Assembly: GCA_963793425.1 (NCBI GenBank)
Contig: CAWCAG010000005.1
Span: 1,984,001-2,048,000, forward strand
DNA from: an uncultured cyanobacterium
Lineage (GTDB): Bacteria; Cyanobacteriota; Cyanobacteriia; Cyanobacteriales; CAWCAG01
Reading direction: 5' to 3'
DNA length: 64,000 nucleotides
The first letter of the stretch is position 1. Every line of letters begins with the position of its first letter. A model generated the notes under the pieces. That model was not told the DNA's origin. It ran no database searches and worked only from the letters and a program-made list of their open reading frames with translations. The translations under genes were made by a program, and so were the position numbers. Of this stretch, positions 4,357 through 9,297 are shown in pieces.

Positions 4357-4360
4357 TCTC

Positions 4361-4494
4361 GTAGGGTGGGCAAATAAACCGTGATCTTTGGGTAACTCAA
4401 TTACAAAATTGCTTTGCCCACCTAATAACTATGGTGGGCAAATAAACAATCATCTTGGGCATGACTAATAACGAAAGTATTTTGCCCACCCTAC
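4361..4494. repeat. Tandem pair of GTAG-family REP-like hairpins (GGTGGGCAAA...TTTGCCCACC)
   Basis: Two consecutive inverted-repeat units bounded by GTAGGGTGGGCA and TGCCCACCCTAC, between convergent genes. Confidence 0.75.
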
Positions 4495-4517
4495 TTTTTT
4501 TGTTGCTGAGTTTCTCG

Positions 4518-4838: not shown

Positions 4839-4901
4839 TAGCCAGATAGCCAGAGTTAGCCAGAGTCAGCCAGTCAGCCAGAGAATCAATTCTCTGGCTG
4901 A
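4839..4901. promoter_or_regulatory. AGCCAG direct-repeat array ending in a 13-bp inverted repeat; candidate operator
   Basis: Five AGCCAG copies; TCAGCCAGAGAAT-ca-ATTCTCTGGCTGA at 4874-4901; lies between divergent genes. Confidence 0.45.
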
Positions 4902-5190: not shown

Positions 5191-6036
5191 ATGACACTAT
5201 CAATTTATCTCGAACAGGAAGAAGCTTTCTTAGAAGCAATGGCGACTCGCTTCGGATTTCAAGGTAAGGCGAGAATTGTTTTTTTGCAACGCTTTCTTAT
5301 GGCTAATAACGATTTGAACAATCAAAACTTAGCGGAAATTGTTGCTACTGATTTAATTGTGGGGACAAAAAGCGGTGATGCGGCACGTATTTTTAAAGAT
5401 TATTTGAATAAAACTATTTGTCCGCAATTAGCTAAAGAGGGTTGTGATTTTGGTGAGGCGACAAAGGGGAAGTGGAAGATTGCCCAACATTGGTTACAAG
5501 GAGAAGTTTTTCCTCAATGGCAAGCAAAACAACCATCTCTTCCTGTGACAATTAAACAACTTTGGCATCGCTTAGTAGATTTGGCTAAGCCAGGTTTAAA
5601 TATGGGACCAGTTTTAGCGACAGATATTTTGAATATGTGGGGAGAATACGAAGACTGTGTACCCTTGGGGAGTTCTATTAAGTTTGTGGTAAACTTACCT
5701 AATCCAGGTTATTTAATCTTATTAGAACAAGCTACTTCCGGAGATATTTATTGTTTATCTCCTTCGTTTTTTGCGCCGCGACCAAAGTTTCCGGCAGGGA
5801 AAGTTTCTTTGCCGCAATCAGGGGTATCGCGAAAGGCATTTAGAATTACTGGCAACCCTGGTACAGAGAAAGTTGTGGCGGCGATTATGCCAGGAAAGCC
5901 AGCTTTGAGTTGGTTGTTGGAAGGGGAAAGGAAACCTTTAATAATTAGGGAAAGTCATCTACAAGATTTGTTGTTTTGTTTGCAAAAAGAAAAAGCAGCA
6001 AAGATTTTTTATACGGAATATACAGTTACAGCTTAG
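5191..6036 (+). CDS. N-terminal helical (possibly HTH-like) domain plus C-terminal DUF4384-like beta domain
   Basis: C-terminal pattern LGSSIKF..N....GYLILL....SGDIYCLSPS...G.E.V.A matches DUF4384; start placed at ATG 5191. Confidence 0.7.
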   Translation: MTLSIYLEQEEAFLEAMATRFGFQGKARIVFLQRFLMANNDLNNQNLAEIVATDLIVGTKSGDAARIFKDYLNKTICPQLAKEGCDFGEATKGKWKIAQHWLQGEVFPQWQAKQPSLPVTIKQLWHRLVDLAKPGLNMGPVLATDILNMWGEYEDCVPLGSSIKFVVNLPNPGYLILLEQATSGDIYCLSPSFFAPRPKFPAGKVSLPQSGVSRKAFRITGNPGTEKVVAAIMPGKPALSWLLEGERKPLIIRESHLQDLLFCLQKEKAAKIFYTEYTVTA

Positions 6037-6106
6037 TTTTTCTAGGGCAGGTAACTAATTTTGTTTGTGTTGAAGTACTAATTATTTTAAATCAGAGATT
6101 AAAGTT

Positions 6107-9100
6107 ATGAGTGAACGGGAAATAAATGAGCAACGCTACCAAGAATATCTGCAATTGATTGGTGAATTGTTGCAATGTGATGATGGTAAAGAAAGTGAAA
6201 TCTTGGAAGCGAATCAAGATTTATTGGATGCAGATTTTTTAACTGTAGTAGAACAGGTTGCCAATTATTTAACGAAAGAAGGAAAGGAAAATAATGCTAA
6301 CTGGTTGCGTAACTTTGCTGCAAAATTGAGAGGAGAGACAGAAACTAATCCTTGGGAAGAGTTAAATCAACAGGTATTACGACTCTATCAACAAGGACAA
6401 TACAACGCCGCTATACCTTTAGCAGAACAAGCACTCGACTTAGCTAAACAAACTTGGGGAGAAAACCATCCTGATGTAGCTACTAGCCTCAATAATTTAG
6501 CCTGGTTATACAAATCTCAAGGAAGATGGAGTGAAGCAGAACCTCTTTACCTGAATGCTTTACAACTAAGGAAAAAACTATTAGGAGAAAACCATCCTGA
6601 TGTAGCTACTAGCCTCAATAATCTAGCCTTGTTGTACGAATCCCAAGGAAGATGGAGTGAAGCAGAACCTCTTTACCTGAATGCTTTACAACTAAGGAAA
6701 AAACTATTAGGAGAGAACCATCCTGATGTAGCTACTAGCCTGAATAACTTAGCTGGCTTGTACAAATCCCAAGGAAGATGGAGTGAAGCAGAACCTCTTT
6801 ACCTGAATGCTTTACAACTAAGGAAAAAACTATTAGGAGAGAACCATCCTGATGTAGCTACTAGCCTGAATAATTTAGCTGGCTTGTACAAATCCCAAGG
6901 AAGATGGAGTGAAGCAGAACCTCTTTACCTGAATGCTTTACAACTAAGGAAAAAACTATTAGGAGAGAACCATCCTGATGTAGCTACTAGCCTCAATAAC
7001 TTAGCTGGCTTGTACAAATCCCAAGGAAGATGGAGTGAAGCAGAACCTCTTTACCTGAATGCTTTACAACTAAGGAAAAAACTATTAGGAGAGAACCATC
7101 CTGATGTAGCTACTAGCCTCAATAATCTAGCTGGTTGTACAAATCCCAAGGAAGATGGAGTGAAGCAGAACCTCTTTACCTGAATGCTTTACAACTAAGG
7201 AAAAAACTATTAGGAGAGAACCATCCTGATGTAGCTACTAGCCTCAATAATTTAGCAATTTTGTATGCAGCCAGCGATCAGACTAAAAAAGCTTTCTCTT
7301 TAATGCAACAAGCAACCACCATAGAAAATAAGCTTATTAGTAACCTCTTCGCTGCTAGTTCCCAACAAACCCGTTTTGCTTACTTAAAAACAGTTAGAGG
7401 TAATTTTGAAGCTTTTCTCTCCCTGATCCTCAACCACTTAGCAGACAACAACGAAGCAGTAACCGCCGCCTTTAACTTAGTCTTGCAACGCAAATCTCTC
7501 ACTGCTGCTGCCTTAACTGCCCAAAACCAAGCCCTTTATAGTGGACGCTATCCCCATTTACAAAAGGAATTTAGCGAATTGCGTCGTTTAAGTGATGAAA
7601 TTGTCCAGTTGACTTTCGCGACTCCAGCAGAACAAAGCCATAACCAAACTAACTTAGTAGAGTTGCAACAGCAATACAATGAATTAGAAAGGCAACTAGC
7701 AACCCAAGTACCAGAAATTGCTTTGCAGGAACAAACCGTTAACCATGAAACTGTTCGGACTATTTTGCCCAGGGGAACTAGTTTAATTGAGTTTGTTTGT
7801 TTTAAAATCTTTGACTTTAAAGCCCCTGCTAAGGAAGAATGGCAACCTGCCCGCTACGTTGCTTTTATTGTTTCTGGTGGTAGCAAAACAATAGGCTTAG
7901 TAGATTTAGGAGTTGCTACAGAGATCGATAATTTAATTCAAACCTGTCGTCAATCTGTTGCTGTGGGGGGCAGGGTTTTAGAGATGTGGGATGAAGAAGC
8001 AACGGCAACATTTCCCTTCCGAATCTACAATCCCTCTACAGCAAAGGAACTCAGCCAAAAAATCTTTGCCCCCTTGGTTTTAGAATTAAAAGGACAAACT
8101 CAATTAATTTTTGCCCCCGACGGTGCTTTAAACTTGCTGCCCTGGCAAATTATGCCCCATCCTACTAACCCAGAAACCCTGTTGTTAGACAATTACCAAA
8201 TTAGCTATCTTAGTTGTGGGCGAGATTTGTTGCGATCGCAACTTAAAACAGAACGTCCCGTAGCCCAACCTCTAATCCTCGCCGATCCTGACTTTGACCT
8301 CGATAACTCCAACCCTGACAAAACTCCTGCCACCAGCTTGCTAGATAGCTTAGATGGAGTTTTTGCCCCTGCCCCCGGCACTCGCTATTTAGGGGAAAAG
8401 GTAGCGACGATGTTGGGAGTTAAACCTTGTTTAGGTAAGGATGCTGTAGCAACTCTGCTGACTAATCATAAAGCCCCTCGCATTTTACTGATTGCGACTC
8501 ATGGCTATTTTTCAGGGCTTAAACAGGTTGGGCATTATTGGCAGTTAATTATGGCTTTGTTAACTTCTCCCGACAAGGCAGATAGGATTTTAAAAAGTAA
8601 CCAAAACTTGTTAGATCAAGAGTTACTTACGCAAATGGCAGAAGCAGTAACTTTGCTTCAAGAAAGAGAACAAGAAAATGCTGCTCAATACCTAAGAAGT
8701 ATAACTGTCGCAATTACCGAACTACTGCAAAAATTACCTGAAGACAGACTCTCCAACGCCCCAGCAGAAAACCCGATGTTACGTTCTGGATTAGCTTTAG
8801 CGGGGGCGAACGCTTGGTTAAAGGGGCAACAACTTCCCCCACAAGTAGGTAAAGGTTTCCTCTTCGCCCAAGAGGTTGCGGGGTTGGATCTTTGGGGGAA
8901 TGAAATCACGGTACTTTCTGCTTGCAATACGGCTATGGGAGATATTCAAGTTGGGGAAGGAGTTTTCGGCTTGCGTCGTGCCTTCGCGGTTGCGGGGGCG
9001 AAGACTTTAATTATGAGTTTGTGGCCCGTTCCCGACAAAGCAACTGCCCTGTTAATGGAACAGTTTTTCAGCAATCTACAAGCAGGTTTAGGGAAAGGGG

Positions 9101-9297
9101 AGGCGTTACAAACCGCCCAAAACTACATCCGCAACATCACTGTTAAGGAGTTGCATCAGTCGGAGTTAGGGAAAGAGGTTTTAGAAGAGTTGTTGCAACA
9201 CAAAAAAGATGAGGTTAAGTACCAAGAAGATGATCTGCCCTTAAATCATCCTTTTTACTGGGGGGCTTGGGTTTGTCAAGGAGAGTATCAGATTTAG
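6107..9297 (+). CDS. TPR-CHAT caspase-like protease, split by a 1-bp deletion at about 7131-7135
   Basis: 42-aa TPR repeats (HPDVATSLNNLA); CHAT motifs APDGALNLLPW, ATHG (His 8500-8502), LSAC (Cys 8923-8925), SLWPVPD, HPFYWGAW; ORFs 6107-7183 and 7135-9297 join within repeat 6. Confidence 0.88.
6458..7257 (+). repeat. 126-bp near-identical tandem repeats encoding TPR units (6 full units plus 1 partial)
   Basis: Units start at 6458, 6584, 6710, 6836, 6962, 7088 and 7213. Confidence 0.95.

Follow-up and report, generated by a model that had tools for sequence, protein, structure and literature searches.

The window analysed here is a stretch of 64,000 nt from an uncultured cyanobacterium (CAWCAG01; assembly GCA_963793425.1, contig CAWCAG010000005.1, positions 1,984,001-2,048,000 of the forward strand). 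It carries two co-directional genes that lie between a sodium:solute symporter (SSF) gene and the gene for aconitase B. The upstream gene encodes a protein with a DUF4384 domain, termed here the partner, and the downstream gene encodes a TPR-CHAT protease for which the partner is a candidate substrate. The two proteins share a short motif, which reads ILNMWGE in the partner and VLEMWDE in the protease (Table 1). An earlier note made from the letters of this DNA had predicted that the shared motif is a cleavage site, placing one copy in the linker ahead of the DUF4384 domain and the other in a loop ahead of the CHAT core. Translation confirms both motifs. Below we describe the two proteins, show that the motifs co-vary across orthologous gene pairs, and weigh what this may mean.

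Table 1. Features of the partner and protease genes. Positions are those of the window; the slash marks the predicted scissile bond.
Feature	Position	Strand	Description
Partner gene (substrate candidate)	5191..6036	+	281 aa from ATG 5191; open reading frame (ORF) open from 5152
Partner helical N-terminal domain	5197..5583	+	helices at model residues 3-131
Partner DUF4384 beta-sandwich C-terminal domain	5602..6030	+	PF14326; strands, model residues 138-280
Partner motif ILNMWGE	5626..5646	+	Met162 of the 294-aa ORF; predicted cut ILNM/WGE
TPR-CHAT gene, 5' part	6107..7183	+	N-terminal helical region and kinesin light chain (KLC)-like TPR repeats; stop after the frameshift
Tandem TPR array	6458..7256	+	126-bp (42-aa) units, 6.3 copies, 97% alike
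Frameshift site	7130..7140	+	'gctggttgtac' against 'gctggcttgtac' in the other units; one base missing
TPR-CHAT gene, 3' part	7135..9297	+	last TPR unit, helical middle region, CHAT protease domain
Protease disordered loop GGRVLEMWDEEATATF	7966..8013	+	model residues 203-218, predicted local distance difference test (pLDDT) <50
Protease motif VLEMWDE, putative copy of the partner's site	7975..7995	+	translation and co-variation
APGTRYL segment, followed by Gly-Glu	8371..8391	+	translation
Catalytic His456 (ATHG)	8500..8502	+	invariant in a 33-sequence alignment
Catalytic Cys597 (LSAC)	8923..8925	+	invariant in a 33-sequence alignment; next residue is N598

The partner and the protease

The partner most likely starts at the ATG given in Table 1, and its homologues begin at an equivalent methionine. 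An AlphaFold2 model of the protein (pLDDT 93.8) consists of a helical N-terminal domain, a linker and a beta-sandwich C-terminal domain. The motif (model residues 146-152) lies in the lowest-confidence block of the model, in an exposed loop that joins strands 138-142 and 156-158 where the sandwich begins. An exposed hairpin opens the C-terminal domain, as has been described for Csx30. The match to DUF4384 covers residues 172-243 with 37.2 bits against a cut-off of 27, and scores 40 bits in the search of the genome. In a fold search the C-terminal domain resembled only generic Ig/macroglobulin-like sandwiches, with middling Z scores of 7.7 or less, and Csx30 was not among the best 50 fold matches of the partner model. 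Foldseek with the whole model returned noisy matches only, and a sequence search of PDB chains gave no partner match. Apart from the partner, the genome has DUF4384 only in two copies (G000:C1:202551-202820 and G000:C5:564109-564378; L152, L154), both fused to Peptidase_C14 caspase domains.

The N-terminal domain matched no Pfam or NCBIfam family at E ≤0.01, the NACHT N-terminal and effector-associated (NNH/EAD) families included, and a structure-cluster look-up returned only its own DUF4384 cluster (0.75). The same domain (profile positions 1-150) also heads cyanobacterial proteins of 850-1440 aa (L137-L144; for example L137:505-4830), which by Pfam are NACHT-HEAT-NCC-H/NCAB1 and NB-ARC-TPR proteins, that is, STAND NTPases. 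Its presence on STAND NTPases would fit a role for the partner in a conflict system, as adaptor or effector.

In the protease, the CHAT domain (PF12770) spans residues 302-716 and scores 186.6 bits against a cut-off of 24. The AlphaFold2 model (pLDDT 82.9) places the motif (model residues 206-212) within a disordered stretch that links two helices and precedes the catalytic part. The top 15 Foldseek matches are all to Craspase TPR-CHAT/Csx29 (E 5.5e-10 to 4.8e-7, template modelling score 0.35-0.43), followed by separase (ranks 16-37) and DdvA. A profile of 33 orthologues recovered no Csx29 chain among PDB sequences at E ≤10, and a PDB sequence search with the protease itself gave KLC-type TPR matches only, the TPR units matching KLC1/2 at E 3.4e-28. 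Genome-wide there are about 24 CHAT matches. A helical insert between the catalytic His and Cys (8530-8735; model helices 390-458) resembles the protein's own N-terminal helical region (6140-6331), a likeness that stems from one row of the comparison (L025, E 6.1e-4) and a weak DUF7273 match.

Between the two proteins of the window, ILNMWGE and VLEMWDE are the top 7-mer pair, with a BLOSUM62 sum of 27. A search of 1.68 million residues (genome frames of at least 100 aa) for the pattern [ILVM]L[NEDQ]MW[GDEN][EDQ] returned these two sites and no others. At the DNA level the sites share 15 of 21 bases, with unrelated flanks and different Leu codons, which argues against recent gene conversion.

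Linker and loop co-vary across orthologous pairs

We asked how far the two genes travel together. Homologues of the partner amount to 39 proteins, all cyanobacterial, and partner homologues were found in 38 of 401 genomes of a phylum-wide sample and in 111 of 401 of an order-wide one. We collected 81 partner loci, 80 fetched from other sequences plus the window. A strong orthologous TPR-CHAT gene lies directly downstream on the same strand in 63 of the 81, a weaker CHAT gene in 10, and none in 8, three of which sit at contig ends. Searching from the protease side added 20 loci, with a partner-like gene upstream in 10, a cut by the contig end in 7 and no such gene in 3. A paralogous TPR-CHAT family had no partner in any of its 8 loci. 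The protease loop measures 26-63 aa (median 33) in 62 partner-linked proteins, versus 15-19 aa in the 8 partner-less paralogues. Clustering of neighbouring genes found no third gene that is kept across clades. A distant partner family with W-I/L-x-F linkers (L108, L119-L123, L132) showed no clear motif shared between linker and loop, except GIVIP/GIVLP in L121.

Across the 63 orthologous pairs, the partner linker and the protease loop switch motif class together. LNMW in the partner is met by LEMW in the protease, LDLY by LDLW, LGLR by LGLR, LGARR by LGARR, LGNRR by LGNRK, LGWGK by LGWGK, LDMGE by LDMGG, LGRYR by LGRYR, LDLE by LDLD, LGMW by LGMF, and DRDLV by DRDLV. The number of classes that change in both partner and protease is eight or more. 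For a quantitative test, the 63 pairs were reduced to 36 representatives by clustering at 65% identity, and each linker was scored against each loop by its best ungapped 6-mer. The mean best score was 18.9 for cognates versus 13.9 for non-cognates (z 7.7), and none of 20000 permutations scored as high. A test of sister pairs, which controls for kinship, pointed the same way: among 24 comparisons the cognate pairing was better in 12 and the swapped one in 2, with 10 ties (p 0.0065). The earlier note had named, among the results that would refute it, motifs that are not conserved or do not co-vary in orthologous pairs; the two motifs clearly pass this test.

Loops of the LDMW class (L056, L082-L084, L089, L094, L105) carry a tandem arrangement, N-L-G-x-R followed by L-[DE]-M-W. 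From this arrangement, an older site of LGxR type may persist in such loops next to the partner-matching one.

The third core residue and the catalytic dyad

To compare positions within the motif, each core was positioned by the Leu that is conserved in the partner alignment. Identity between partner and protease at the successive core positions, cognate versus non-cognate, is 0.67 versus 0.49, 0.58 versus 0.46, 0.75 versus 0.26, 0.61 versus 0.35, and 0.19 versus 0.22. The third core residue, Met in the window, is thus the most partner-specific one. It is identical in 48 of the 63 pairs, being Met in both proteins in 22, Ala in 10, Trp in 8 and Leu in 4.

We then calculated mutual information between the class of this residue and 487 alignment columns of the protease. 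The highest value, 0.51-0.54, belongs to the residue that follows the catalytic cysteine (Cys597+1, N598), and 6 of the top 20 columns fall within 5 residues of His456 or Cys597, where 22 such columns lie (p 1.1e-4). Residues beside the catalytic Cys and His therefore track the putative P1 class; a test for co-variation with an S1-pocket residue had been proposed in the earlier note.

Reports on the Csx29 family bear on the position of a cut. Csx29 cleaves Csx30 at AVGM/KKDK, just past the linker, where the C-terminal domain forms a hairpin, and only mutation of the P1 Met impairs this cleavage (bioRxiv 10.1101/2022.08.17.504292, Kato et al.). Craspase orthologues are described as cutting at L/D, M/K and A/S without cross-cleavage (van Beljouw et al., PMC11106740), so the premise that Csx29 enzymes cut after Met or Leu holds and extends to Ala. 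Given the Csx29/Csx30-like logic and layout and a P1 spectrum of mostly Met, Ala and Leu, the best-supported register for the predicted cut is after the third core residue (ILNM/WGE), with a hydrophobic Met at P1.

A hydrophobic P1 had also been proposed in the earlier note, and that part of its specificity claim is supported. Its argument for a shift in specificity is not. It had read APGTRYL, in place of the usual CHAT LPxxxxE segment, as a segment that lacks Glu. In fact Gly-Glu follows directly, the family consensus is APGTRxLGE, and Glu stands at +8 in 20 of 33 sequences. A pattern search for LPxxxxE across the other CHAT paralogues of the genome gave one match. With Glu two residues past APGTRYL and a consensus of this form, the argument is unsupported, and we rejected the segment as an explanation of specificity. 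Overall, the interpretation in the earlier note is partly supported, most of it by the co-variation test that the note had itself set.

A frameshift in the protease gene and the surroundings of the pair

The protease gene of the window is split, a feature absent from the earlier note. Because one base is missing near 7134, within the 126-bp tandem TPR array, the gene reads as two overlapping ORFs (Table 1). Metagenome contigs from 3 of 4 runs show a C inserted after 7134; these contigs are 54-69 nt long and may derive from other repeat units, which leaves them ambiguous. TPR-CHAT matches are spread over more than one ORF in 8 of the 63 orthologous loci.

No CRISPR array lies within the window, and the RT-Cas1 (reverse transcriptase-Cas1) genes of this genome are on other contigs. 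The surroundings are of another kind in one clade of orthologues (L066-L075), in which the partner has a different N-terminal domain and the same linker and DUF4384 domain. Here the pair adjoins RT-Cas1 in 10 of 10 loci, with neighbours that are not Cas7-11. In detail (L074:9229-15459, L176:3057-10494), it lies between type III-B Cmr genes on one side and RT-Cas1, a CRISPR array and a second Cas1 on the other. The array has at least 25 repeats of 36 nt, and the Cmr genes (Cas10/Cmr2, Cmr3 and RAMPs) were seen in the one genome checked (G306). Just past the protease gene, two loci of this clade (L074:1949-3778, L071:13252-15087) encode a CdiA_C toxin-domain protein of 610 aa, which lies between small ORFs (133 aa and 150-158 aa). 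Together these may form a downstream effector/immunity set.

In the window, the intergenic DNA upstream of the partner (4360-4500 and 4840-4900) contains two copies of an element, 'ggtgggcaaataaac', with matching 'ttgcccacc' arms. The same DNA holds a run of short repeats resembling 'agccaga'.

A proposed mechanism and its alternatives

We propose that the two genes form a protease-substrate module built like Csx29/Csx30 and standing, in this genome, outside any CRISPR locus, and we give this reading a probability of roughly 60%. The motif in the partner linker would be the likely cut site, and that in the protease loop a pseudosubstrate or decoy, or else a self-cleavage copy of the substrate site; cleavage at either site is a prediction. 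According to this proposal, the active-site cleft of the protease would read the core L-x-Met both in the partner's hairpin and in its own disordered loop of about 30 residues. A cut after Met in the partner would free the helical N-terminal domain from DUF4384, its presumed anchor. The protease's own copy would compete for the cleft, and would so set a threshold for protease activity or limit it. The TPR array would switch this activity on; such a trigger, and a role for the freed N-terminal domain, we infer.

Several observations weigh against this proposal. In the window alone the match between the two motifs is within chance, as 29% of 1000 shuffles reach the score of 27; its significance therefore rests on the other genomes. 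There, a scan of whole proteins puts the top 6-mer pair in linker and loop in only 4 of the 36 representatives (0.2 expected), and only in 5 of 36 does the cognate rank first or share first place, since motif classes are common to relatives. Two sister pairs, L081/L090 and L101/L102, prefer the swapped pairing. In the former, the proteases are 89% identical and both loops read LG[AN]RK, while the partner of L090 has LGLRH and that of L081 LGARR, so that this exception looks like a swap of partners. One loop is degenerate (LDPSW in L082), and one of the two partners at L060 mismatches the loop. The third core residue spans Met, Ala, Trp, Leu, Asn, Arg and Ile, a wide range for P1. The design of the mutual-information analysis (the residue classes and the window of 5 residues to either side) was chosen after a first look, and kinship inflates the values, so the column result is supportive, not decisive. 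AlphaFold2 leaves the protease loop undocked and without contacts. In Jc-Csx30, single substitutions around the site left cleavage intact (PMC11106740), and sequence may thus matter less than position. Finally, with its protease gene frameshifted, the module may be dead in this strain.

This last point can be taken further, to a decaying remnant in which the frameshift parts the TPR sensor from the protease and the motifs are conserved history. The missing base, the stop of the 5' ORF at 7183 and the orthologous loci whose TPR-CHAT matches are spread over several ORFs would all agree with decay, as would the lack of a partner match in a genome of the same genus (G415) and in one of the same family (G431). 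Both protease ORFs are otherwise intact, however, and retain dyad and motif; repeats of 126 bp that are nearly identical easily give rise to errors in assembly and polishing; and most of the metagenome runs show the form with the extra C, ambiguous as these contigs are. We regard decay in this genome as possible, though well short of probable. A rival account of the motif itself is that it is a docking peptide for the protease's own KLC-like TPR array, the loop holding the TPR closed and the partner's copy competing with it. The groove of KLC takes W-acidic motifs, which displace an autoregulatory linker (PMC13078783), and with TPR units so close to those of KLC1/2 this makes TPR docking a serious alternative. 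LEMWDEE and LNMWGEYED do look Trp-acidic, and docking would explain one motif in both proteins and its co-variation equally well. Yet the TPR unit hardly changes across the motif classes, many of which have no Trp or are basic (LGARRNK, LGRYRP). Moreover, the 42 TPR-unit consensus columns, which represent the groove only crudely, contribute nothing to the top 20 for the third-residue class, the highest TPR value being 0.31 against 0.51-0.54 for Cys597+1; for the other three core positions the TPR-unit columns in the top 20 number 0, 1 and 0. On balance we hold docking to be unlikely.

Co-variation shows only that both motifs have a common reader. An exosite in the CHAT or middle domain might play that part through strand pairing, or else a third protein that binds both, for example a phage factor or a CRISPR effector complex; any cut would then fall elsewhere. 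Several high-scoring columns (residues 540, 316, 375 and 182) are indeed distant in sequence from the dyad, positioning by the C-terminal part of Csx30 outweighs the site residues in Craspase (PMC11106740), and one clade has the pair inside a type III-B locus. Set against this are the rank of Cys597+1 as best single column and the enrichment of columns near the dyad, the retention of the pair as two genes with no constant third gene across clades, and the symporter and aconitase B that are its neighbours in the window. A reader elsewhere thus seems to us a shade less likely even than docking. That the similarity is due to chance and shared ancestry, or to upkeep by gene conversion, and has no function, is already disfavoured and in our view very improbable. 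The window-only score would allow it, but the permutations, the sister pairs and the classes that switch in both proteins speak against it, as do the unrelated DNA flanks and differing Leu codons of the two sites.

For most caspase-like proteases of bacteria, neither substrate nor cut site is known. If the proposed protease-substrate module is right, sequence alone names, for each of more than 60 orthologous pairs, a substrate, a probable scissile bond and a specificity residue. It would also indicate a regulatory principle, a substrate mimic within the enzyme, that is known for separase. We found no such enzyme-internal mimic for prokaryotic CHAT proteases in the literature, as far as the available text of sources including PMC11506125 and PMC12669027 goes (supplementary files excluded), and no account of the present gene-pair family in the literature searched, again supplementary files excluded. 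The motif classes look mutually exclusive, as with Craspase orthologues, which could make them usable as orthogonal protease/tag pairs. The association with type III-B loci in one clade suggests Craspase-like proteolysis beyond type III-E. A wider and more tentative idea, which we think may well prove wrong, is that DUF4384 with its hairpin is a general presenter of cut sites for CHAT and C14 proteases, fused or adjacent. The pair would then be a Craspase-like output arm, serving type III-B or standing alone, with each protease gated by a co-evolving decoy. Such a family would comprise at least eight orthogonal protease/site pairs with Met, Ala, Trp, Leu, Asn, Arg or Ile at P1, all readable directly from the sequence.

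Comparison with known systems

Kinesin light chain resembles the protease in its TPR units, in a short ligand motif of Trp-acidic appearance and in an internal competing segment. It differs in that the TPR units here, judged by their consensus, do not appear to track the motif and most motif classes are not Trp-acidic. In orthocaspase (Peptidase_C14)-DUF4384 fusions, DUF4384 likewise travels with a caspase-fold protease, fused there and encoded by a separate gene here. Separase has a CHAT-related fold. Its inhibitor securin blocks the cleft by acting as a pseudosubstrate, and separase also cleaves its own chain at sites similar to those in its substrates. Unlike the protease described here, separase is eukaryotic, has Arg at P1, is inhibited by a separate protein and has no DUF4384.

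SAVED-CHAT/PCaspase of type III-B is, like the present protease in one of its clades, a CHAT protease tied to type III CRISPR loci, but it is a weak fold match (E 0.044) and is driven by cyclic oligoadenylate. For the anti-sigma TPR-CHAT protein DdvA, self-cleavage of a linker in trans has been put forward; in the account given in PMC11506125 its dyad is incomplete, unlike that of the present protease, and the self-cleavage is only a proposal.

The closest parallel is Csx29/Csx30, from which the pair departs in several respects. Csx29 is encoded with Cas7-11 (gRAMP) and bound to it; no Cas7-11 lies beside the present pair, in a search confined to the neighbourhood, and its neighbours in the window are housekeeping genes. 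The orthologue profile gave no sequence-level match to Csx29 chains among PDB sequences. The conserved N-terminal domain of Csx30 binds Csx31/RpoE; the partner instead has an N-terminal domain that recurs on NACHT/NB-ARC proteins, and its gene has no sigma factor gene next to it. Nor did the Csx29 literature searched, as opposed to Csx29 sequences, describe a protease that contains a co-varying copy of its substrate's site. The likenesses are nevertheless extensive. The protease shares the TPR and CHAT architecture of Csx29, which is its nearest solved fold. Like Csx30, the partner is an adjacent substrate candidate with a helical N-terminal domain, a linker and a beta C-terminal domain, and its site lies in the opening hairpin. 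DUF4384 occurs on both sides, since one group of Csx30 C-terminal domains is DUF4384 (bioRxiv 10.1101/2022.08.17.504292). And as with the Csx29 orthologues, for which P1 is Met, Leu or Ala, the site differs from one orthologue to the next.

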